The notes under the pieces are model-generated. The model was given only the letters and a program-made list of their open reading frames with translations. It searched no databases and was not told the DNA's origin. Positions 4,334 to 19,227 of a DNA stretch of 64,000 nucleotides are shown piece after piece; positions within the stretch are counted from its first letter, which is position 1; each line of letters opens with the position of its first letter. Both the position numbers and the translations under genes were made by a program. Source of the DNA: Polyangiaceae bacterium (GTDB lineage: Bacteria; Myxococcota_A; Polyangia; Polyangiales; Polyangiaceae). Where the stretch lies: positions 125,773 through 189,772 of the forward strand of contig JBNKBE010000012.1 in NCBI GenBank assembly GCA_050287085.1, read 5' to 3'.

Positions 4334-5127
4334 ATGACGGAAACGCTAACCAGCGCTCGCGCCGCCGCCTTTCTTCTTCGCTACGAGGCCGGCGGACGCT
4401 TCTTCCGGGAGCCCATTCTCCCTTCCACGGACCTGCGCGAACAAAACCTGAGCGGGATTGAGTTCCGTGGCGGCAGCTTCGCTGGCAGTGACCTGTTCGC
4501 GGCCAGTCTCTACCAGGCCACAATAACGGGCACCGACTTCAGTCATGCCAACCTTGTCTCCTGCGACCTGAGTCGGAGCCATATCTCTCTGAGCCACTTC
4601 GTAGGAGCTCACTTGAATCAAGCGCGGATCCGCTACAGCCAACTCTTGGAGGTGGAATGCGCGGGGCCAGCCTCGCCCATGCAGATCTGCGCCACAGCGC
4701 CCTAGAAGCCAACCTCGAAGGCGCCAACCTCACGCGCTGTCGAGCCGAAGGAGTGGACCTAAGTCGTTGTTTTGCATTCGGACTCAACGCCGAGCGGCTG
4801 CACGCTCCGAAGGCCGATCTGAGCTTCGCCAAGCTGCGTCGCTCCAACCTGCACGGAGCCACGCTTCGAGACTCATGCCTTTCAGCAACTGATCTGCGGG
4901 AAAGCCAGCTGTCGGAAGTTGATGCCACCGGAGGCGACTTCCGCGGGGCTCAGCTTCAAGGTGCAGATCTCAGTCGCTCTTCATTGCGTTATGCAGACTT
5001 GAGTGATGCTGACCTGACGGGCGCTCGATTGCTCGCCACCGATCTGCGTGGAGCCATTCTGAACAACACGTGCTTTGACCAGGTCGACCTATCGGAAGCC
5101 CTGCTCGGTGCGTTGGAAGCGGAGTGA
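4334..5127 (+). pseudogene. Pentapeptide-repeat protein split by a 1-nt frameshift near 4655-4670 (real lesion or sequencing error)
   Basis: A(D/N)LxxA-type repeats run through ORF 4334-4705 up to about 4660 and continue in the -1 frame ORF 4657-5127. Confidence 0.75.
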
Positions 5128-5466: not shown

Positions 5467-5976
5467 TTGCCGGAATCGGGCATTCAATTGAAGTACCCCA
5501 CATCTCACCCCCGTTGGGGGCTCGCATTGCATATTGCAAGCAGCGCCCTACTGCTTCTTCTGCTGCTGTCGCGCCCAGCCGCCGCCGGCATCGAAGCACC
5601 GACGTGGCACGAAACCCAAGACGCCGATGCTGAAGCGGGCCACGTGACCCTGACCTGGTCCGGCACGGGCGATAGCTACGAGCTTCAACATGCAACCGAT
5701 GAACAATTCCTGCGCACCAGCCGCATAACAAGTACGGCAGATACGCAAAGTTTCGTCTCCGGACTCGGAAATGGAGCCCACTACTTCCGAATTCGCTCGA
5801 AGCAACGCGGGGTGCTATCGCCCTGGTCGCCTGTGCTTCGCTTCGACGTGGCTCACCCCTCGCTTGCCACAAGTCTTGGTCTGTTCGGAGCCGGCGCGCT
5901 CGTCTTCGTCGTCACCGTTGCCTTCACTCTGACCGAGGGCTTTGGAGCATCAAGACACGCAAGGCGGGCGACTTGA
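5467..5976 (+). CDS. Exported, membrane-anchored fibronectin type III-like protein
   Basis: Signal-like hydrophobic stretch ending AAA, FN3-like pattern (LTWS...YELQ...SGLGNGAHYFRIRS...SPWS) and a C-terminal TM helix. The stop overlaps the symporter start (TTGA). Start codon uncertain. Confidence 0.7.
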   Translation: MPESGIQLKYPTSHPRWGLALHIASSALLLLLLLSRPAAAGIEAPTWHETQDADAEAGHVTLTWSGTGDSYELQHATDEQFLRTSRITSTADTQSFVSGLGNGAHYFRIRSKQRGVLSPWSPVLRFDVAHPSLATSLGLFGAGALVFVVTVAFTLTEGFGASRHARRAT

Positions 5977-7412
5977 ACTCGTTCAGTTTGCCTGCTGGCC
6001 TCGCCTGGGGATTGCTCGCCGCGTTCTCCGTACTGTGGATTGGCCTCGGGCTGTTCTGGGGTAAACGCGCTCGGACGGCTGAAGGGCATATGCTGGCAGG
6101 GCGCAATGTGGGCCTCGCACTGGGAGCTGCCACGGCCGTGGCCACCTGGGTCACCTCCAACACCACCATGTTGGCGCCGCAGTTCGCCCTCCAACTCGGA
6201 ATCTGGGGCATGCTGGCATACTCCACCGCGTCCATCGGACTGTTTCTCTTTGCACCGATGGCACGTCGCATTCGAGCCCTGATGCCCAATGGCTACACCA
6301 GCGCGGAGTTCGTACGACTGCGTTACGGAAGAGCAGCTTGGGGCGTCTTCATGCTCATTTCGGTCTTCTACAGCCTCACATGGCTGATCAGTATGGCCAT
6401 GGCCGGTGGCCTGCTCCTGGAGGCCCTTGCCGGCATTCCCTACGTCGCGGGCATGAGCATCATCTTGGCCGTCTGCGTGGTCTACACGGTGGTCGGCGGC
6501 CTCTACGCCGTGATCGGAACCGACTTCATTCAGAGCCTGATCATTCTGGCTGGAGTTGTCATCGTCGGAGTGGCTGTGCTGGATCGAGTTCCCGTGGGTG
6601 TGATGTACGATCGCATCTCGGAAGAGCGTCCACTTCTACTGGACGCGATGTTCCCCGCGGCACTGATGGCCGTGTTCAACAATCTTCTATTCGGGCTGGG
6701 TGAAATCACGCACAGCAACGTTTGGTGGAGTCGTGCCTTCGCGATCCGCGACGGCCTAGGTCAGAAAGCGTACACACTAGCGGGGCTCATCTGGTTCCCC
6801 ATCCCTCTCGCCGCAGGTTTCATTGCGCTCGCCGCGCCGAGCTTGGGAGTGAACGTGGCACGCCCGGATATGGTCGCCCCCTTGGTCGCGGGGTCGTTGC
6901 TGGGCAAAGCCGGAGCCGTCCTAGTCTTCATTGTCGTGTTTTCTTCTCTGGCCTCTAGCATCGACAGCCTGCTTGCGGCGACCAGCGATTTGATCACGAA
7001 GGAGGTCGTCGCACGGATACGACCCCGGCCCGGCGATGCTAGCGAGAAGCGACAGGCCATTGTCACTACGCTCGCCCTAGGTCTCCTGTGCTGGCTCGCC
7101 TGCCTGCCGAAAGTCGGAACGCTAGCGTCCGTATTATTCTTCGCCGGTCCCCTCGTAGGTAGCACCATCTGGCCAATTCTGGCTGGGCTCTATCATCCGA
7201 AGGCCTCGGCTGCTGCCGCAACCAGCGCGATGGTTCTCGGCAGCGGCGCTGGGCTCTTCGCATACTTCACCCTCGGTTGGTATACCGCGTCCTTGATCGG
7301 CACCACTGTATCGATGGCAGTGGTGTTGGTCGGGCTTGGCAGCAGCGCCCGCACTTTCGACTTCTCAATTCTCGCGGGAAGTAGCCCAACCCGAAACACG
7401 GAGACCTCGTAG
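5973..7412 (+). CDS. Sodium:solute symporter family transporter (resembles the DUR3/urea-type subfamily)
   Basis: About 13 hydrophobic helices; LAGRNVG, EFVRLRYG, YTVVGGLYAVIGTDFIQ, SSLASSIDSLL. Confidence 0.9.
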   Translation: MNSFSLPAGLAWGLLAAFSVLWIGLGLFWGKRARTAEGHMLAGRNVGLALGAATAVATWVTSNTTMLAPQFALQLGIWGMLAYSTASIGLFLFAPMARRIRALMPNGYTSAEFVRLRYGRAAWGVFMLISVFYSLTWLISMAMAGGLLLEALAGIPYVAGMSIILAVCVVYTVVGGLYAVIGTDFIQSLIILAGVVIVGVAVLDRVPVGVMYDRISEERPLLLDAMFPAALMAVFNNLLFGLGEITHSNVWWSRAFAIRDGLGQKAYTLAGLIWFPIPLAAGFIALAAPSLGVNVARPDMVAPLVAGSLLGKAGAVLVFIVVFSSLASSIDSLLAATSDLITKEVVARIRPRPGDASEKRQAIVTTLALGLLCWLACLPKVGTLASVLFFAGPLVGSTIWPILAGLYHPKASAAAATSAMVLGSGAGLFAYFTLGWYTASLIGTTVSMAVVLVGLGSSARTFDFSILAGSSPTRNTETS

Positions 7413-7531
7413 TGTTTCCAAAAGTTGTGTTCGAGGCGCTGGTACTGCTCAGTCTCATACTGACGGGCAGCTCCGTACTCCTATTGACGGTGCTTTGGCT
7501 GCGCGACTTGCGAAAGGGGAAACTGTGGTAG
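7412..7531 (+). CDS. 39-aa single-TM small protein MFPKVVFEALVLLSLILTGSSVLLLTVLWLRDLRKGKLW (not in ORF track)
   Basis: GTG start overlaps the symporter TAG (TAGTG) with GGAG upstream. One hydrophobic helix and a basic/Trp tail; the stop overlaps the next gene's start. Confidence 0.75.
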   Translation: MFPKVVFEALVLLSLILTGSSVLLLTVLWLRDLRKGKLW

Positions 7532-8628
7532 AGGGGAAACAGCGCTTCGAGTCCAGGATCGCGCCCGTGGGGTTGTCCCATAACTCGAGCGGACAACAAC
7601 TCGCCGCCCGAGGTTTGGTCGAATTTCGCGATCAACGCCTGGACTTCATGCTCCTACAGAGCCTCGCCGGAAAGGCAGTGCTCAGCGCGCGCCTGTTCGA
7701 CGCTTCGCTGGTCGTGGCGTTATGCAAGTTTGCTGGGCTACTCGAAATGACGGAGATCGCATCTCATCATCCACTCGACGGCAAGCTTGTGATCACCGCC
7801 TTCTTTGAGGCTAGCACACGGACGCGACTCTCCTTTGAGAGTGCCGCCCTCCGGCTCGACGCCAAAGTCGTGAGCGTACCCGACGGCAAGGTCACCGGCA
7901 TCGCCAAAGGCGAAAGCTTGGCGGACATCGGCGAGATGTTCAACACCTATGGTGACCTTGTGGTCATGCGCCACCCAAAGAGCGAAGCCGTTTCTCAGCT
8001 ACAGACTCACCTACGACTCCCCCTCATCAACGCAGGCAACGGCACTGACGAACATCCCACGCAAGCGTTAGTTGACTGGTACACGCTGCTCAAGTGGCGC
8101 CCAGAGTTGTGCGCCAGTGAACTCCCCCGGAGCAAACGCATCAGGCTCGGCATCATTGGTGACCCCAGCACGATGAGAACGGTTCGCAGCTTTCTCTACC
8201 TGGCTTGCTGTTTTGCCCCCGCTATCTCGGAGCTGTACATCATATCGCCCAACAAGAGCGAACCGACGGGTGCTCTCAAACGCAGCCTAAGCAGCGCTGG
8301 CATTCCACTCACAACGACCGACAAGCTCGGCCCCATATTGCCTTCGCTCGACGTCGTCTACATCAACTCCATCGCGCTACTGGATGATGGCTATCATGAA
8401 TTGTCCGGGGACTACAACCTGAGCGCTAGTAGCCGTCTGAAGAAGGGTGCGGTCATTCTGCACCCCTTTGCCCGTCGTGGAGAACTTGCCGAGGACCTCG
8501 ACGGAACAGAGCACAATCTCTACTTCGCCCAGGCAGCTGGCGCCGTTTATCTGCGTCAGGCGCTCCTGATCTGTCTACTCGAACGCTTGACCGCTTTGCC
8601 TGGGGGCGTGCTCTACTTGGCAAAGTAG
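7525..8628 (+). CDS. Aspartate/ornithine carbamoyltransferase-family protein; PyrB-like but with an altered acceptor site
   Basis: FFEASTRTRLSF, KGESL, MRH, INAGNG..EHPTQ, GD....RTVRS, HPFAR. The ATCase RxQxER motif is replaced by YINSIAL. GTG 7525 chosen as start (AAAGGGG upstream). Confidence 0.85.
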   Translation: MVEGKQRFESRIAPVGLSHNSSGQQLAARGLVEFRDQRLDFMLLQSLAGKAVLSARLFDASLVVALCKFAGLLEMTEIASHHPLDGKLVITAFFEASTRTRLSFESAALRLDAKVVSVPDGKVTGIAKGESLADIGEMFNTYGDLVVMRHPKSEAVSQLQTHLRLPLINAGNGTDEHPTQALVDWYTLLKWRPELCASELPRSKRIRLGIIGDPSTMRTVRSFLYLACCFAPAISELYIISPNKSEPTGALKRSLSSAGIPLTTTDKLGPILPSLDVVYINSIALLDDGYHELSGDYNLSASSRLKKGAVILHPFARRGELAEDLDGTEHNLYFAQAAGAVYLRQALLICLLERLTALPGGVLYLAK

Positions 8629-8708: not shown

Positions 8709-10673
8709 ATGTGTGGAATTACAGGTTTCTGGCAGGTAGGTGGCCTCGGGGCAAACGATCACGAGAACCTGACGCGTATGCTCGCTACACTGCACCATCG
8801 CGGTCCCGACGGCAGCGGGCGCTATCACGATGACGCGCTAGGCCTCGCCATTGGACACACTCGCCTCACCATCATCGATTTGCACACCGGCAAGCAGCCA
8901 TTGATCGCTCCGGATCGCGCCCAGGTGTTCTCAGCCAACGGCGAATTCTACAACTACAAGGAAATGCGAGCGGAGTTCGCTCGCAGCGGCGTGGACTTCG
9001 AAACCAAGAGCGACAGCGAGGTCGCTCTCTATGCGTATCGGCGCTACGGCGACGCGTTCTTCGAACACCTTCGTGGCGAGTTCGCAATCGCGCTATTCGA
9101 CTACCAGAAGCAAGAACTGCTGCTGGTCAGAGACCGCTTTGGTGTCAAACCACTCTACTACCATGCGACGGACGAGCGTTTGGTCTGGGGGTCCGAGGTA
9201 AAAGCCATTCTCGCTAACGACAAGGTGCCCAGAAGTCTCGACTTCAAGTCTGCGCTCAACCAAATGATGCAGACCATGGTGCCCGGCACAACAGCCTTTT
9301 CTGGTGTGCGAACACTGCTGCCTGGACACTTTCTACGAGTGCGCCGCGAGGGCCACCGACTGGTTGCGCGTGAGCATCGCTACTGGGATATGAACTTCCC
9401 TGACGCCGAGGCACACGAGGAAGCACTCGAACCGCAGGTCTACATCGACCGCACTGCTGAGCAATTGATCGATGCGATTCGAGTACGGCTCGAGGCGGAC
9501 GTTCCAGTGGGCTGCTACCTGTCGGGTGGCATCGACAGTTGCTCGATCCTGGGGCTCGCCACGGCGATGCAGCAATCGCCCGTCAAAGCCTTCACGATAA
9601 GCTTCGAGCACAAAGCCTACGACGAAAGCCATATCGCAACCGAGATGGCTCAGAAAGCCAAGGCGCAACAGGAGATTCTACGACTATCGGCAAGAGAGCT
9701 CTACGGACCGGCCTACGTTAAGACTCTATGGCATGCGGAGCGCACATTCTACAACACGCTGGGAGTTGCCAAATGGCACATGAGTCGGCGCGTTCGAGAA
9801 TGCGGCTACAAGGTCGTCGTAACCGGTGAAGGCTCCGACGAGATGTTTGCTGGCTACCCCTTCTTCAAGCGCGACTACTTCGCTCACGCGCCAGAGGCGA
9901 AGGGGGATGCCGCGGAGCTGGCACGGCGTATGGACGCCAGCAATACCCTCTTCAAGGGTGCGATCCTTGCTGAGGAAGCGACTCACCACGATGCTGCCGC
10001 GGATGTCATGGGGTTTACCCCTTCGTGGATTCAACCGTGGATCCTTACGCTGGCAGCAGCGCGACCGCTGCTTTCAAAGACAGCCACTGAAGCCCTCGCA
10101 GAGTACGATCCAGTCGCGGCCGTGTTCGAAACGCTCGACCCCGAACAGTTGCGAGGACGCCATCCGCTGGACAAGGTTCAGTATAGCTGGATCAAGACGA
10201 TGCTCGAAGGCCAGATCCTCACCTGGGGGGGTGATCGAGTCGATATGGCCAACTCGATGGAATCACGTCCAGCATTTCTCGATCATCACCTCGCGGAGAT
10301 GGCACGCAACATTCCACCGAAATACAGAATCCGGGGTGGCGTCGAAAAGTGGGTCTTGCGCGAAGCTATGCGTGGCGTGTTGCCCGAGGTGCTCTACAAG
10401 CGAGAGAAGTTCGCCTTCATGGCTCCGCCCGCACATACCGAGAAGCGGCAAAACAGTGTCTTGGACGACCTTATCGAAGAACGTCTCTCACACGCCGCAA
10501 TCGAGTCCCTGGGCTTCTTCGACGCGAGCGCAATCGATGCGTTTCTTGCAGCCCGCAAGCAGGAGACTGACCCGGCACGGCAGACTCGCAACGATATTCT
10601 ACTCAACCATACATTGGGCCTTCAGGTGCTGCATCAAGAATTTGTGGAGGCCCCGCGAGGCGCCGTGCTGTAG
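8709..10673 (+). CDS. asnB: Asparagine synthase-like glutamine-hydrolysing amidotransferase (class II GATase + ATP-pyrophosphatase domain)
   Basis: N-terminal MCGITG, HRGPD, RLTIIDL, NGEFYN, SDSEV, RDRFGVKPLYY, LSGGIDS, TGEGSDE. Confidence 0.9.
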   Translation: MCGITGFWQVGGLGANDHENLTRMLATLHHRGPDGSGRYHDDALGLAIGHTRLTIIDLHTGKQPLIAPDRAQVFSANGEFYNYKEMRAEFARSGVDFETKSDSEVALYAYRRYGDAFFEHLRGEFAIALFDYQKQELLLVRDRFGVKPLYYHATDERLVWGSEVKAILANDKVPRSLDFKSALNQMMQTMVPGTTAFSGVRTLLPGHFLRVRREGHRLVAREHRYWDMNFPDAEAHEEALEPQVYIDRTAEQLIDAIRVRLEADVPVGCYLSGGIDSCSILGLATAMQQSPVKAFTISFEHKAYDESHIATEMAQKAKAQQEILRLSARELYGPAYVKTLWHAERTFYNTLGVAKWHMSRRVRECGYKVVVTGEGSDEMFAGYPFFKRDYFAHAPEAKGDAAELARRMDASNTLFKGAILAEEATHHDAAADVMGFTPSWIQPWILTLAAARPLLSKTATEALAEYDPVAAVFETLDPEQLRGRHPLDKVQYSWIKTMLEGQILTWGGDRVDMANSMESRPAFLDHHLAEMARNIPPKYRIRGGVEKWVLREAMRGVLPEVLYKREKFAFMAPPAHTEKRQNSVLDDLIEERLSHAAIESLGFFDASAIDAFLAARKQETDPARQTRNDILLNHTLGLQVLHQEFVEAPRGAVL

Positions 10674-10784: not shown

Positions 10785-12020
10785 ATGCTGAGCATAAACA
10801 TGAAGCGACTGCAGCGAGATCTCGAGGAGCTCGCTGAAATTGGCCGCCGCGGAGACACAGGCATCTACCGCATTGCGTTGAGCGACGAGGACATGCAGGC
10901 GCGTCAGTGGCTGCAAGACAGGTTGTCGGACGCAGGCCTCCACTGGGAAGTCGACCCAGCGGCGAATATCTGCGGCAAACTCAATTGCGTGCCAGGAGAG
11001 CCCAACGTCTTGACGGGCTCGCATCTCGACACCGTACCGAGCGCCGGACATTTGGACGGAGCCTTGGGCGTCGTTGCCGGACTTGAATGCTTGCGCACGC
11101 TCTCCGAACAAGGCTTTGTTGGCAAGCGCGGTATCGAAGTCGTCAGCTTCACCGATGAGGAGGGTCGCTTTGGCGGAATGCCAGGCTCGCAGGCGATCGC
11201 CGGAAAACTCACTCCCGAATCGGTCTACTCAGCAAAAGATCTCAGCGGCGTGAGTCTGGCTGAAGCGCTTGAAGCGCGCGGGTTCATCCCCCTTCACGTG
11301 TTGCGCGCAGCGCGAGGGCGCGGCAGCGTCCATTCCTTCGTGGAGCTCCACATCGAGCAAGGCCCTGTGCTCGACAGTCAGGGGCTAGACATTGGTATCG
11401 TCACGGGCATCGTCGGCCTCGTGAAGTGGAAGGTAACACTGACAGGACAAGCCAACCACGCGGGAACAACGCCTATGGCGCTACGACGTGACGCATTTCA
11501 AGGTCTGGCCGAGTTCTCTCTGAGTCTTGATTCGATTCTGCGGAAACACGGCGATCCGAACAGTGTTGCCACGATTGGCCAAGTTAGCGTCAAACCAGGC
11601 GCCCCCAACGTGGTTCCCGCTCGAGCTGAGTTCTCCCTTGAGATCCGCGACATCAACAGTGAAGCGCTGGAGCGCCTCGCCGCCGCCATACGGCAACATC
11701 TCCGCGAAATCGCAGACCGACGCCGGCTGAGACTCGACTTCGCGGTATTGAGTGAGATCGCGCCTGTGCCCTGTGCCGAATCGGTCATGCAGACAATTGT
11801 CAGCGTCGCGCACGAGCTCGGACTGCGCGGGCAGCGTATGCCGAGCGGGGCCGCCCACGACGCGCAGCAAATGGCTTCACTGGCTCCAACCGGGATGATC
11901 TTCATTCCGAGCAAGGACGGGCGCAGTCACTCTCCGGCTGAATGGTCAAGCTGGGAATCGATCGAGGCAGGGACCAATGTACTGCTGAATACTTTGGTCA
12001 GCCTGGCTGAAGCCCCCTAG
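10785..12020 (+). CDS. Zn-dependent M20 amidohydrolase (N-carbamoyl-L-amino-acid hydrolase / allantoate amidohydrolase family)
   Basis: GSHLDTVP, DGALGV, FTDEEGRFG, ELHIEQGP, NHAGTTPM, SGAAHDA, SHSPAEW. Confidence 0.92.
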   Translation: MLSINMKRLQRDLEELAEIGRRGDTGIYRIALSDEDMQARQWLQDRLSDAGLHWEVDPAANICGKLNCVPGEPNVLTGSHLDTVPSAGHLDGALGVVAGLECLRTLSEQGFVGKRGIEVVSFTDEEGRFGGMPGSQAIAGKLTPESVYSAKDLSGVSLAEALEARGFIPLHVLRAARGRGSVHSFVELHIEQGPVLDSQGLDIGIVTGIVGLVKWKVTLTGQANHAGTTPMALRRDAFQGLAEFSLSLDSILRKHGDPNSVATIGQVSVKPGAPNVVPARAEFSLEIRDINSEALERLAAAIRQHLREIADRRRLRLDFAVLSEIAPVPCAESVMQTIVSVAHELGLRGQRMPSGAAHDAQQMASLAPTGMIFIPSKDGRSHSPAEWSSWESIEAGTNVLLNTLVSLAEAP

Positions 12021-12150: not shown

Positions 12151-12894
12151 ATGACTCAAAAGCAATTCGACAATATAGACCCGCTGCGCGACGCGTATCG
12201 GACCCACCTCACAGACGCCCATGAGGTGGAAATCGCGATTCGACAAGACCACGTCGCCCTGCTCTGTATCGACATGCAGTACTTGGACGCCGCTCGTGGG
12301 TGGGGGGTGTTCGCCCCTGGCCCGCAGGCGGTAGTACCGCCACAGGCCGAAGACTACTACTTCGAACGTCTCGAGAGCCTTGCATTGCGCAACGTGCGGC
12401 GATTGCAAGACGCATTCAGACGGCAACGTCTGGAAGTGATCCACACCCGCATTCGCTCTCTGACGCAGGATGGTCGCGATCGCGGCCCCGGACACAAGCG
12501 CCTGGGCCTACATGCCGCTCCAGGGTCAAAAGAAGCCGAGTTTCTCGAAGAAGTCGCTCCGCGGGGAGATGAAATCGTCCTCAACAAGACGGCCAGCGGA
12601 GTCTTCGTATCGACCAATCTGGAATACGTATTGCGAAATTTAGAAGTCAACGCCCTCTACATCGTTGGGGTCTACACCAACGAGTGTGTCGAAACCACCG
12701 CAAGAGACGCCAGCGACCTCGGCTTCTTCACAACCGTCATCGAAGACGCCTGTGCCACGGTAACACCTGAACTTCACAACTCATCCCTAAACACACTGCG
12801 GGATCGCTACGCACGCATCCTGTCCACTGATGCCGCCATTCGGGAGATCGAAGCGTATCGAGGCCGGGCAAGCGTGGCGCCACCGGGCCTTTGA
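12151..12894 (+). CDS. Cysteine hydrolase (isochorismatase-like amidase)
   Basis: D-K-C triad context: IDMQ, NKTASGVF, GVYTNECVETT..DASDLGF. ATG 12151 chosen as start. Confidence 0.88.
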   Translation: MTQKQFDNIDPLRDAYRTHLTDAHEVEIAIRQDHVALLCIDMQYLDAARGWGVFAPGPQAVVPPQAEDYYFERLESLALRNVRRLQDAFRRQRLEVIHTRIRSLTQDGRDRGPGHKRLGLHAAPGSKEAEFLEEVAPRGDEIVLNKTASGVFVSTNLEYVLRNLEVNALYIVGVYTNECVETTARDASDLGFFTTVIEDACATVTPELHNSSLNTLRDRYARILSTDAAIREIEAYRGRASVAPPGL

Positions 12895-12950
12895 CTCCGA
12901 GCATCGAATTGGGCCAGAAGCGACCCACATACTGACAACGACGCGGCTAT

Positions 12951-13033
12951 CAACAGCAGACTTACCAACGGCAGACTTACCAACGGCAGACTTACCAACG
13001 GCAGACTTACCAACGGCAGACTTACCAACGGCA
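12951..13033. repeat. Intergenic tandem repeat, 15-bp unit CAACGGCAGACTTAC, 5 copies plus a partial
   Basis: Read directly; the first copy has one mismatch (CAACAGC...). No spacers. Confidence 0.97.
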
Positions 13034-16000: not shown

Positions 16001-16399
16001 TCAGAGATCCCCTTCGAAGCTTGCCCAGGCGGCATGCGATTCATGGAGGGTTACCTTCATCGATACAAGTGCATCGCTACCCGGCCCGAGGCGGCCCCCG
16101 GCGATCGCCGCTTGCATGCGGTCGAACACCGTGCGCGCCATATATTCCGTCGTGGTGTTTTGTCCGTGCAGCGCTTCAAGGTCGTCCAAGTTCTTGAAGT
16201 TGAACTCACCGACAATTGCCTTGAGCGTTTCCCCGGCGCGGCCAATATCCACGACCACGTTGTTGGGGTCTAGAGTTGCACGCCGGAACTCGACGTCAAC
16301 CACGTAGGTCGCTCCGTGAAGGGCCTGAGCCGGGCCAAATAGCTCCCCACGAAAGCTGTGGGCGATCATCATGTGTTCACGAACGCAGACTGTATACAT
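16001..16399 (-). CDS. 6-pyruvoyl-tetrahydropterin synthase homolog (COG0720, PTPS-IV-type signature)
   Basis: MIAHSF...FGPAQALHGATY, NLDD, NTTTE, LHESH. Lacks the QueD CxxxHGH motif. Confidence 0.85.
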   Translation of the reverse strand: MYTVCVREHMMIAHSFRGELFGPAQALHGATYVVDVEFRRATLDPNNVVVDIGRAGETLKAIVGEFNFKNLDDLEALHGQNTTTEYMARTVFDRMQAAIAGGRLGPGSDALVSMKVTLHESHAAWASFEGDL

Positions 16400-16460
16400 T
16401 GCTCTTCCTTTTTTGAGACGCCGGAGGCGCTGCTATTGGGTGCTTTCCCATTGGCGGGTC

Positions 16461-17567
16461 CTAAGCACCAATCGTTTGGAGTACGTCGTAGCGAAACGAG
16501 GCGGCAGCCTGGTGCCAAGTAGCTAGCTTTCGGGCGAATTCGTGAGCGCCGCGAGACAACGCGGCTCGCCGCTCAACGTGGCTAATGCAGTCAAGATGAG
16601 CCGACAGTTGCGCCACATCCCCGACGGGTGCCAACAAACCCGTCACCCCTGCGTCCACGATGTCGACAACCCCCCCCGCGGCATAAGCCACCACGGGCAG
16701 CGCTGCGGCGGCAGCCTCAACCAATACAAGCGGGTAGTTCTCGGTATAGCTCGGGTGTAGCAACACATCCGCTCGCGCCATATGGTCGCGCACCTCCACG
16801 GGCGAGCGTTGCCCCACAAAGTGCACAGCAAGACTGGCGGTATTCGAACGAGCTTTCAACTCCGCGACGAAGCCGGGCTCCAGCTCACAATTGCCAATGA
16901 CCGTCCAACGTAGCTCACGCCGAGCAAGGCGTCGCAGCGCCTCCACCGCGTCAAGCAGCCCCTTGTTTCGCGCCACTGCTCCTACCGTGAGAATCTGCAA
17001 AGGCCCCGCCACGCGGTCTGCACTAGGCCTCGCTGGAGACCGCTGCCCCTCGATGCCCGGATAGGCTACGACAAAGCGGGTCTGCGGCAACAGGGAGCTG
17101 AGCTCACGCGCTAGATAAGGACCCGGCAATACGACCAGGTCTGCTCGGGCCAAGAGCTCCAATTCGCCGGGCTCCGGTGCGAGCAGGAGCTCCGGCCCGG
17201 GCTGGGTAACCTGCGCCGCAACCCTGACGAAGGAGGGCAGGGCGTGCAACAAGACTCCGAAGTGCACCTGCGCTTGGTGGGCTTGCTCTTGGATGAACTC
17301 AAAGGGCCCAGATTCCAGAAAGAGCGAGTCAACCAACCAGACGTCGCCGCGTCGCGAATTCGTGGCCTGCAGGGTAGACCTCCAGAGCGAACGATCCACG
17401 CCCAAGCCAACGCGCTCGACTCCTGATCCACTGCGAGCGATCTCCCGATTGTAGCGATAGCCGCCACTCAGGTGCCCGGTCGCACTGGGCTCAATCAGGA
17501 CGATATGCGGTGTGGTTCGGGGGCTGGCAACTCCACCCGAGAAGGGCTCAACACCACGAGGAGTCAT
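16461..17567 (-). CDS. Glycosyltransferase family 4 (GT-B)
   Basis: SGGYRYN, NKGLL, ADVLLHPSYTENYPLVLVEAAAAALPVV, TGLL. Confidence 0.88.
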   Translation of the reverse strand: MTPRGVEPFSGGVASPRTTPHIVLIEPSATGHLSGGYRYNREIARSGSGVERVGLGVDRSLWRSTLQATNSRRGDVWLVDSLFLESGPFEFIQEQAHQAQVHFGVLLHALPSFVRVAAQVTQPGPELLLAPEPGELELLARADLVVLPGPYLARELSSLLPQTRFVVAYPGIEGQRSPARPSADRVAGPLQILTVGAVARNKGLLDAVEALRRLARRELRWTVIGNCELEPGFVAELKARSNTASLAVHFVGQRSPVEVRDHMARADVLLHPSYTENYPLVLVEAAAAALPVVAYAAGGVVDIVDAGVTGLLAPVGDVAQLSAHLDCISHVERRAALSRGAHEFARKLATWHQAAASFRYDVLQTIGA

Positions 17568-17570
17568 CCC

Positions 17571-18467
17571 TCAGCGAGTACCCGGCCCGCGGCCAAATAC
17601 GTCCAGTTGGTGGGCGATGTAGTGCAGTCTGCCAGCGGCAATCTGCTCGTGCCGAAGCCCCGCCCAGGCACGTAGTTCGTCCGCGTCAAGCGCGCCAGAC
17701 CCCGTCAACGCTACCTCGATAGTGTTGACGATGTGATGCAGGAAATACGCTTCGTCCGCTGGATAGCTTTGGCTCTGTGGGAAGACAACCCAGTCCGAGC
17801 TCGCCGCTTCGAGGAGGCGAGCCCCACTCTCGGGGAGTGCCTCAAGCAGATGTCGACCCGTTTTGCTGTCACCCGCGGGTAGTCCGTTCGTGATGCGCTC
17901 GTCCATGGTCTTGTGGAACTGAGCCATTACCCGACCGTCCAACGGCTCTTCGGGTAGCAATATGGTCTCCCCGTCAAAGTTGATGGTGAACCAATAGGGA
18001 GCATCCGGCACCACTCCCCGCCAGATTGCAGACAAGGCGGGCCGCAAGTCCATCAAGTCTAGAACGGCGTTGGCGGATACCGCGTCGTAGCGTTCCGCCT
18101 GCGACCGCATCGAGCAAAAACGCAAGGCGTCCTCATGCACAAAACGCAACTCGAAGTCGAAGTCCTGACCCCTTAGCTTCAACGGGCTCGCCAGCTCGCC
18201 GCCATCCGCAGCGCCGGCCCACTCGACCAAGTGTGCTCGCGCCGCAGACAGGCTCGCGAGATCGCGATCGACAAGCGTGTAGCGCGCACGACGCAAATAG
18301 CCCCAGTCGGCCAAGCGCGAGACCATTGTCCCGACTCCGGCGCCGATCTCCACGATATTGGGACACTCGGGCAGAGCGGCGACAAACCCCTCGAGCACGC
18401 GCCGATGAATCGCACGGTCGTCGACGGTTTTCTTCGAATGGAGGTAGCGGACGTCGGAGAACTGCAC
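17571..18467 (-). CDS. Class I SAM-dependent methyltransferase-like protein
   Basis: VEIGAGVG motif I, VDRD, DAVSANAVLDL, SDWVV. Confidence 0.8.
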   Translation of the reverse strand: MQFSDVRYLHSKKTVDDRAIHRRVLEGFVAALPECPNIVEIGAGVGTMVSRLADWGYLRRARYTLVDRDLASLSAARAHLVEWAGAADGGELASPLKLRGQDFDFELRFVHEDALRFCSMRSQAERYDAVSANAVLDLMDLRPALSAIWRGVVPDAPYWFTINFDGETILLPEEPLDGRVMAQFHKTMDERITNGLPAGDSKTGRHLLEALPESGARLLEAASSDWVVFPQSQSYPADEAYFLHHIVNTIEVALTGSGALDADELRAWAGLRHEQIAAGRLHYIAHQLDVFGRGPGTR

Positions 18468-18528
18468 GCAGCGAACCTAATCTACAGCGCCCCGCGTCGC
18501 AAAGTGTATCAGGCAGCGCTGAGCGTAG

Positions 18529-19227
18529 TCAGGAGGCGTCTGAGATGCGGTAGCGCTGCCAAAACGAGCGGACGAAAGAAAGACTGACAAGCAGCGTTCC
18601 AAAGCTACACAGCCACGGAGCGAACGCCGACGGCAGGACAAACGCCAGCAAGAACGAGCCGATCATCAGGGCGTAGATAGTGCGGCCAAAGCGGGTGCGT
18701 GGGGCACGTCCCACGGGCGTCGGCACGACCAACGGAGCCAATACGTAGAGGTAGTGCCAAGCGCCAACCCATACCAGAGCGCGAGGGATCAACCCGGCAT
18801 GATGCAAGGCCAAGGGCAGGGCCGTGACCAACACCGAATCCACCTCAACGTCGTACAATGCGCCAAAAGGCCCCTCAAGCCCGTCGCGCCGCGCAAGCCA
18901 GCCGTCGAGCCCGTCCAGAACCAATATTAGAAGCCCGAGAATACCAGTGCCGGGCAAAGGCAGGGCGCCTGCGGTGAGCAGAAGTCCCAAGACACCTCCA
19001 AGGCGCAACGTCGTGACGACGTTGGCGCTCCCGAAGTGCCCTGTAGGGCTCCACGCGCGGCGCCCGAGAAAGAGCAGCCCGGCGAGCGACACGCCGCTAT
19101 AGACCGCCAACAACGACGGATCGGGCGCCCACGACGCAAGCAGAATCACCGCTAGCATTCCAGCCGAATGCCACAGCAGCCAGCGCTCCATGACAGCGAA
19201 TCGCGCTTTCTCCGCCGCGTCGCTCAA
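18529..19227 (-). CDS. CDP-alcohol phosphatidyltransferase family protein
   Basis: ANVVTTLR and LDGLDGWLARR...FGALYDVEVD signature; multiple TM helices. Confidence 0.88.
   Translation of the reverse strand: MSDAAEKARFAVMERWLLWHSAGMLAVILLASWAPDPSLLAVYSGVSLAGLLFLGRRAWSPTGHFGSANVVTTLRLGGVLGLLLTAGALPLPGTGILGLLILVLDGLDGWLARRDGLEGPFGALYDVEVDSVLVTALPLALHHAGLIPRALVWVGAWHYLYVLAPLVVPTPVGRAPRTRFGRTIYALMIGSFLLAFVLPSAFAPWLCSFGTLLVSLSFVRSFWQRYRISDAS

Follow-up and report, generated by a model that had tools for sequence, protein, structure and literature searches.

The locus and its gene content

The window analysed here is a stretch of 64,000 nucleotides from a Polyangiaceae genome. It carries a same-strand run of genes for a small membrane protein, a sodium:solute symporter, a pseudo-aspartate transcarbamylase (pseudo-ATCase), an asparagine synthetase B (AsnB) family amidotransferase, an M20 carbamoylase and an isochorismatase-family cysteine hydrolase:

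5467..5976, + strand: small membrane-anchored protein, no Pfam or NCBIfam family; overlaps the start of the symporter gene by 4 bases
5973..7412, + strand: sodium:solute symporter (SSS; PF00474, E = 5.6e-25), present in 69 of 76 loci
7525..8628, + strand: pseudo-ATCase (HPLA/SIA group), put forward here as an L-glutamine N-carbamoyltransferase (profiles, fold, residue map and tree)
8709..10673, + strand: asparagine synthetase B family amidotransferase, glutamine-dependent and ATP-using (TIGR01536, 416 bits, above the cut-off of 267)
10785..12020, + strand: M20 carbamoylase (TIGR01879, 412 bits, above the cut-off)
12151..12894, + strand: isochorismatase-family cysteine hydrolase, an amidase (PF00857, E = 3.7e-35)

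The pseudo-ATCase frame is open from a GTG start codon with the purine-rich stretch AAGGGG just 5' of it, and its 367-aa product is the same as the protein-database call for this gene (P0003). A longer version starting at 7336 was rejected, since it overlaps the symporter gene and the homologues measure about 345-370 aa; this longest ORF is probably over-extended. A scan of the locus for promoters and terminators gave no signal exceeding that of shuffled sequence.

The catalytic residues of the three partner enzymes are conserved. The N-terminal cysteine and the NGE, SGGIDS and TGEG motifs of the amidotransferase are conserved in 97 homologues. The metal ligands of the M20 protein are conserved and its top PDB match is 3n5f (E = 1.5e-96); its best function-named equivalog is the N-carbamyl-L-glutamate amidohydrolase ErtE, at 401 bits against a cut-off of 520. 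The Asp, Lys and Cys positions of the cysteine hydrolase are conserved in 61 homologues, and its relatives in the PDB include biuret, ureidoacrylate and N-carbamoylsarcosine amidohydrolases. We take the roles of these conserved catalytic residues to be those of the respective families. The product of the first gene of the run is likely a partner of the symporter. In 70 of 111 related loci a homologue adjoins the symporter or the M20 gene, and these proteins make up an undescribed family of secreted or membrane-anchored accessory proteins.

Some other features of the window deserve mention. At positions 4334-5127, a pair of pentapeptide-repeat ORFs (4334-4705 and 4657-5127) overlap in different frames and are possibly one frameshifted gene. 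A short tandem repeat follows the amidase gene (12900-13000), with AVGKS/LPLVS repeats in shadow ORFs. A run on the opposite strand (16001-19227) comprises CDP-alcohol phosphatidyltransferase, methyltransferase, GT4 glycosyltransferase and 6-pyruvoyl-tetrahydropterin synthase-like genes.

Fold and phylogeny of the pseudo-ATCase

The structural model of the protein (pLDDT 90) has the ATCase fold (Z = 36.9, rmsd 2.1 Å over 299 residues), and in the ESM Atlas it retrieves only clusters of its own family, which bear automatic ATCase names. All ATCase profile cut-offs are nevertheless missed (173.8 versus 236.95 bits for TIGR00670 and 171 versus 263 bits for NF002032). The SxRT motif, the conserved beta4 arginine, HPxQ and the two-domain fold of the ATCase/OTCase superfamily are all present, and HPFA takes the place of the superfamily motif HxLP with its cis Leu-Pro. 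According to the available parts of Shi et al. 2015 (PMC4581275), OTCase, PTCase, DPTCase and DBTCase are recognized by the signature loops DxxxSMG, (Y/W)(G/W)(V/L/I) and (T/S)RWQ(T/S)(T/M)G; neither these loops nor HCLP/HDLP are matched, and the OTCase sequences are distant in the tree. The protein does not resemble the knotted-type enzymes (AOTCase, SOTCase, YgeW) either: the YgeW models score 21-23 bits for cut-offs of 453-500, and the alignment to E. coli PyrB reveals neither a proline-rich loop nor an extended 120s loop. The H(S/T)LP motif and the carbamate kinase and allantoinase neighbours of the ureidoglycine transcarbamylase (UGTCase) are also absent.

The evolution of the family was studied in a tree of 94 sequences (quick IQ-TREE reconstruction, midpoint root), in which the ATCase-like enzymes are represented by 32 hand-picked sequences, none of them knotted. 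The family and 11 degenerate offshoots form a single branch (SH-aLRT = 100) on a stem of 1.32. This covers the ATCases and OTCases of the phylogenetic comparison that the earlier note had called for, and the gene does not group with true ATCases. The family branch is nearer to the E. coli, archaeal and eukaryote-type ATCases than to the genome's own PyrB. Within it, the window protein belongs to a clade of 19 sequences (SH-aLRT = 95) together with sequences from Rhodopirellula europaea and Stieleria, and the Planctomycetota/Myxococcota branch to which it belongs is separate from a gammaproteobacterial one. No member of the family was found in a plasmid collection, where the best match to PyrB had 34.6% identity and the AsnB matches were below 38%.

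The degenerate offshoots (P0138, P0144, P0148, P0176, P0178, P0179, P0200, P0241, P0242, P0244 and P0253) form a clade nested in the family (SH-aLRT = 100). They have lost STRT, KGE and HPxQ but kept the length and other conserved stretches of the family, and in four of four loci (L198:5577-6716, L199:401-1468, L200:4796-5881 and L212:7-801) the gene stands alone, outside any cassette. From their sequences, they look like a conserved pseudoenzyme family. Another branch is actinobacterial and consists of L072:144-1244 (Jatrophihabitans), P0123 and P0133 (Actinophytocola, Micromonospora). At L072, the gene heads a run of what look, from their N-terminal sequences only, like thymidylate-synthase-like, ThiD-like kinase, enolase-family and TenA-like genes, a context that would possibly indicate a role in secondary metabolism.

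Retained carbamoyl-phosphate motifs and lost aspartate-binding residues

Residues were mapped through an alignment of 196 family sequences to E. coli PyrB from the annotated K-12 record, and their roles, including that of Arg167 as the alpha-carboxylate ligand, follow Shi et al. 2015 (PMC4581275, available in part):

7813..7824, + strand: STRT phosphate-binding motif, residues 97-100, equivalent to S52-T55 of E. coli PyrB
8053..8064, + strand: HPTQ carbamoyl-binding motif, residues 177-180, equivalent to H134-Q137 of E. coli PyrB
8176..8178, + strand: Arg218 in GDPSTMRT, equivalent to E. coli Arg167, the alpha-carboxylate ligand; invariant (196/196)
8359..8379, + strand: YINSIAL, residues 279-285, in the 240s loop; Ser and Ala at R229 and Q231, ER absent
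8461..8475, + strand: HPFAR, residues 313-317, a variant of the group motif HPLAR

The earlier note had read STRT, KGES, MRH and HPTQ as intact, and all are in place, KGES at residues 128-131 and MRH at residues 148-150. The mapped ligands of carbamoyl phosphate and the alpha-carboxylate ligand R167 are conserved throughout the family: S52, T53, R54, T55, K84, R105, H134, Q137 and R167 are retained in 195-196 of the 196 sequences, and STRT, KGE and HP(T/S)Q occur together in 276 of 277 relatives from a wider non-redundant protein set. A less certain contact is that of Ser80 of E. coli PyrB, which aligns with Gly125, a neighbour of the invariant Thr124. The arginine that the same note had assigned to the alpha-carboxylate, in a GD....RT motif, is the invariant Arg218. 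The GD part of that motif is no family signature, since its Asp is particular to the window copy (Thr in 189 of 196 sequences, Asp in one of 277 relatives).

The replacement of the RxQxER loop and the unusual late motif, both of which had also been noticed, extend well beyond this gene. R229 is replaced by Ser in 195 of the 196 sequences, T228 by Asn in 195, Q231 by Ala in 185 and P268 by Ala in 194, and none of the 196 has a residue in the R234 column. RxQxER, stated to be present in all known ATCases (PMC4581275, available in part), occurs in none of the 277 relatives, of which 240 have HPLAR, 32 HPFAR and 272 HP(L/F)A. Since the substitutions are family-wide, they do not reflect decay of the window copy. 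In the AlphaFold2 model, a short beta-hairpin (residues 283-292) occupies the place of the 240s loop. Asn281 and Ser282 are invariant in the family alignment, and the new loop offers no basic residue that is conserved; the last loop residue is F or L in the Planctomycetota/Myxococcota branch versus W in the gammaproteobacterial one.

It might be argued that the protein, as an inactive or regulatory subunit, serves to sense carbamoyl phosphate. Pro268, replaced here by Ala, belongs to the motif by which backbone carbonyls are oriented for catalysis (PMC4581275, in its available parts), and degenerate offshoots do exist in the clade. Yet the joint conservation of STRT, KGE and HP(T/S)Q is nearly perfect, and the offshoots form a clade of their own that lies outside the cassette in every locus inspected, which makes an inactive subunit very unlikely.

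Paralogues in the host genome

The host genome, 96.8% complete, has a canonical pyrR-pyrB pair (RIQQER, HPGP) on contig C6 and an argD-argF pair on contig C9, both read from motifs and neighbours. It also has carB, and a pyrC that, like this pyrB, lies on another contig than the window. The window gene is thus not the only pyrB-like gene of its genome, and all 10 of the other carriers that were tested (5/5 and 5/5) likewise have a separate canonical pyrB. The lack of an adjacent pyrC, which had been taken as a pointer to a different function, carries little weight, because the true pyrB of the same genome has no neighbouring pyrC either.

The alternative that the enzyme is an additional ATCase serving another route to pyrimidines, which Dore et al. 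2023 suggested for asnB-pyrB2-pydC (PMC10119275, available in part), agrees with the fact that its closest structures and profiles are ATCases and that databases label it so. This reading is very improbable in view of the missing RxQxER, the long and fully supported stem branch and the canonical pyrB that accompanies the gene in its own genome and in all the other carriers tested. By contrast, the carbamoylation of the alpha-amine of an amino acid other than aspartate, which the earlier note had proposed, is supported: the two outcomes that would have spoken against it, a sole pyrB and a grouping with true ATCases, were not observed, and glutamine or glutamate as acceptor fits the chemistry of the cassette.

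Distribution and gene context

Of 76 loci, which come mostly from Planctomycetota and Myxococcota, 69 have the symporter, 72 AsnB, 44 M20 and 40 the cysteine hydrolase, counts to which many loci that stop at contig edges contribute and in which one M20 is a distant opposite-strand match. Three of the four loci lacking AsnB stop at a contig edge, and the carbamoyltransferase and amidotransferase genes are adjacent in 72 of the 76. In a sample of 400 genomes from one class (that of G041), 21 have an AsnB orthologue of nearly full length (E < 1e-180) and two more a partial one; the 19 fetched genomes, a set that leaves out the centre genome and one unpublished genome, all carry the four enzymes, and 17 the symporter. 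In the order of G359, the gene is present in 49 of 55 genomes, with the four enzymes together in 15 of 16 fetched regions and the gene alone in one. In this order, L197:8411-9493 is an intact gene with no cassette partner within 8 kb. In 25 metagenome loci the gene is either intact or truncated where the contig stops, and AsnB adjoins it in 22 of them. The copies at L135 and L193 appear frameshifted.

Elsewhere the distribution is patchy (two of 41 relatives of the window genome, 11 of 151 genomes in the family of G043). The patchy carriage among relatives of the window genome and a slightly low GC content (0.58 vs 0.63) suggest a possible horizontal transfer into the Polyangiaceae genome.

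The recurring neighbours in 111 distinct loci (from 112 examined, L151 repeating L017) are MarR (35), BCCT transporters (13), sarcosine/dimethylglycine methyltransferase (12), glycine/sarcosine methyltransferase (11) and sucrose synthase (11). In all, betaine or sucrose genes flank the cassette in 26 of the 111, with sucrose synthase in a single order accounting for 11 of these 26. In the one class sampled, with the centre genome and an unpublished genome dropped, glycine/sarcosine methyltransferase was found in nine of 21 cassette genomes versus 21 of 377 others (odds ratio 12.7, with kin that are not independent); the match is thus missing in 12 of the 21. The host genome itself carries a betaine-synthesis trio, including glycine/sarcosine methyltransferase genes, on contig C40, and tblastn with two queries found no close MarR homologue in it.

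This gene content bears on a catabolic scenario, in which the symporter would import a carbamoylated compound and the enzyme would work in reverse, by phosphorolysis, as does the ureidoglycine transcarbamylase of Rubrobacter. The cassette does offer a transporter and two hydrolases, UGTCase shares both the Ser in place of Arg229 and the retained Arg167 (PMC4581275), and the picocyanobacterial transporter is annotated ureP/DUR3 in a cluster enriched in nitrogen-poor water (Dore et al. 2023), as far as the available parts of these papers go. Nevertheless, carbamate kinase above cut-off was found in none of five carrier genomes and is absent from the recurring neighbours, the motif is HP(L/F)A instead of H(S/T)LP, and the most constant partner is the ATP-consuming amidotransferase, far ahead of the two hydrolases. 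Ureide scavenging is therefore quite improbable.

A candidate pathway for N-carbamoyl-L-glutamine 1-amide

N-carbamoyl-L-glutamine 1-amide (CGA) was reportedly described in 1991 by Galinski and Oren. The compound is glutamine with an alpha-carbamoyl group and a 1-amide, and is a solute of Ectothiorhodospira marismortui, "also known as" E. mobilis (PMC1224877, available in part). No genes for it are named in the available part of PMC7824335, and a literature search that barely covered subscription journals and theses retrieved neither genes assigned to CGA nor a paper tying the pseudo-ATCase group to it. The two synthetic enzymes of the cassette, a carbamoyltransferase and an amidotransferase, match the two modifications of glutamine in CGA, which supports a link between them. 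Judging from sequence, it seems probable (roughly 0.6) that the pseudo-ATCase carbamoylates glutamine and that the amidotransferase then gives CGA.

We infer the direction, the acceptor, the order of the reactions, the product and all the partner roles. The pseudo-ATCase would transfer the carbamoyl group onto the alpha-amine of glutamine in the first step and the AsnB-like amidotransferase would amidate the alpha-carboxyl in the last, yielding CGA. The symporter would take up CGA, and the cysteine amidase and the M20 carbamoylase would recycle it by stripping the amide and the carbamoyl group, respectively. The retention of Arg167 and Lys84 suggests that the alpha-carboxylate of the acceptor is free, and thus that carbamoylation comes first and amidation last. 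That Arg229 is gone and no other conserved basic residue has taken its place, together with the invariant Asn281 and Ser282, would point to a neutral side chain and favor glutamine over glutamate. The reading is further favored by the betaine and sucrose genes that flank the cassette, by the higher frequency of glycine/sarcosine methyltransferase in cassette genomes, by the layout shared with the NAGGN system, and by the presence of carB along with the lack of a carbamate kinase above cut-off in the five carriers.

The pathway can be compared with two genomes that bear the name of the reported producer. NCBI records with the label E. mobilis (WP_200180292.1 and WP_090484788.1) are identical to proteins of L186 and L187; these loci are known by that label, and the CGA-producing strain may differ. 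Their pseudo-ATCase, AsnB, amidase and M20 proteins are respectively 49-50%, 51%, 67-68% and 52% identical to those of the window. The genes follow the order MarR-M20-amidase-transcarbamylase-AsnB, with sucrose synthase and a PfkB kinase as flanking genes; in L187, the PfkB kinase stands on one side of the cassette and the MarR gene plus sucrose synthase on the other. Each genome has three ATCase/OTCase-fold genes only (this one, a PyrB-like and an ArgF-like one) and several further AsnB-family genes, and a NodU-type carbamoyltransferase was found in neither of the two. Since the gene is near-universal in the order searched, E. mobilis would be expected to carry it whatever its function, and this occurrence discriminates weakly.

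Other observations do not sit easily with CGA. Rhodopirellula baltica SH1 carries the pseudo-ATCase RB13301 (PMC4016543), and the NMR spectra of R. baltica DSM 10527 across salinities report glutamate, sucrose, trehalose and MGG but no CGA, in the available part of PMC3694870. RB13301 does not appear in the salt-shock tables of PMC2754498 in their available form; the small ORFs RB13294 and RB13300 near it, which were not matched to cassette genes, are upregulated by salt at 300 min. The picocyanobacterial cluster tracks warm nitrogen- and phosphorus-depleted water (Dore et al. 2023), which suggests a role in nitrogen metabolism. Some carriers are not obviously saline, the actinobacterial locus L072 has no AsnB within 8 kb downstream, and the window protein belongs to another sub-branch than that of E. 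mobilis.

The same chemistry might consequently serve another acceptor or product: glutamate amidated twice, asparagine, another alpha-amino acid or lineage-specific N-carbamoyl amides, possibly as a nitrogen store instead of an osmolyte. The pocket residues say "not aspartate" and no more, the best function-named equivalog of the M20 partner is an N-carbamyl-glutamate hydrolase model, and the absence of CGA from the R. baltica spectra (PMC3694870, in its available part) and the distinctness of the Planctomycetota/Myxococcota and gammaproteobacterial branches point the same way. Yet Arg229 has not been replaced by a conserved Arg or Lys able to hold a gamma-carboxylate, and both branches share their active-site residues as well as the five partner genes. 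An acceptor or product of this kind is, in our opinion, unlikely.

A broader interpretation can be put forward, although its chances fall slightly short of even: the cassette would be the missing pathway for the synthesis, uptake and recycling of CGA, with a new L-glutamine carbamoyltransferase activity, and CGA, with four nitrogen and six carbon atoms, would be widespread in marine and soda-lake bacteria as an osmolyte and nitrogen currency that has been overlooked. As part of the same tentative claim, it would belong to Planctomycetota, Myxococcota, sulfur-oxidising Gammaproteobacteria and probably Synechococcus instead of a single purple sulfur bacterium. Were the cassette to make CGA, a new transcarbamylase activity would receive a name, a large group annotated as ATCase (>270 sequences) would be corrected, a niche-linked cluster of picocyanobacteria would no longer be read as an "alternative pyrimidine pathway", and a nitrogen-rich metabolite, so far unmeasured, would be indicated in saline waters. 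Two candidate genes can be named for the orphan CGA pathway; the window copy of the transcarbamylase is itself one more member of a published group.

Comparison with known systems

The window gene is an ordinary member of the "pseudo-ATCases" of Barba et al. 2013 (PMC4016543), whose function is still unexplained there. In its available parts, this paper describes one group with HPLA and AIA, AIS or SIA at R229-Q231, and a marine subgroup comprising R. baltica RB13301 and sequences from Nitrosococcus oceani, Synechococcus WH8102 and Kangiella koreensis, whose neighbours are a Na+ symporter, a HyuC-like hydrolase and a "putative asparaginase"; the assays concerned only UGTCase, the enzyme of Rubrobacter, and the marine group was given no function. 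The row numbers of its Table 1 disagree with its text, as the HPLA row is "1" and the marine group "3" in the text, and UGTCase has H(S/T)LP yet is Subgroup 1 of the text; the HPLA row was here equated with the marine Subgroup 3 by motif. The R. baltica BR-MGV protein carries SIA and HPLA. The window gene resembles the marine pseudo-ATCases in STRT, HPTQ, SIA at R229-Q231, HPxA and its status as a paralogue of a genuine pyrB, as well as in the Na+ symporter, asparagine-related enzyme and N-carbamoyl amino acid hydrolase alongside. It differs from them in having HPFA instead of HPLA, a conservative variant that 32 of 277 relatives in the same clade also show, and GD instead of GT or GV, and the asparagine-related neighbour is an AsnB family enzyme in the window versus Barba's "putative asparaginase".

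With PyrB (EC 2.1.3.2), the protein shares the fold, the carbamoyl-phosphate site, Arg167 and Lys84, but it departs from it in the absence of RxQxER, the change of Pro268 to Ala, a shorter 240s loop, scores below the cut-offs, a separate clade and another gene context. Like UGTCase (Rxyl_2847), it is derived from ATCases, keeps Arg167 and has Ser at the Arg229 position; it lacks the H(S/T)LP motif and the carbamate kinase and allantoinase neighbours of that enzyme, and probably its catabolic role.

The ureP-pyrB2-asnB-pydC cluster of picocyanobacteria (ProCAG_007/SynCAG_003), for which the alternative pyrimidine route was proposed (PMC10119275, available in part), similarly unites a transporter, a PyrB paralogue, AsnB and an N-carbamoyl hydrolase. 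The membership of the cyanobacterial pyrB2 in the pseudo-ATCases rests on Barba et al., not on a sequence comparison, and the fifth enzyme of the cluster is annotated as an Ntn hydrolase versus an isochorismatase-type one in the window.

Finally, the cassette recalls the NAGGN system (asnO-ngg, PA3458-PA3461), which also combines the amidation of the alpha-carboxyl of glutamine by an AsnB-family enzyme, an N-capping enzyme, a hydrolase and MarR. AsnO acts last, on NAGG (PMC8070244, available in part). The cap differs, as it would be a carbamoyl group here versus an acetyl-dipeptide there; the cassette has no Ngg homologue, and its AsnB scores 302 bits on TIGR03104, below the cut-off of 570. 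The likeness would nonetheless extend to the product, which in both cases would be an uncharged osmolyte derived from glutamine.
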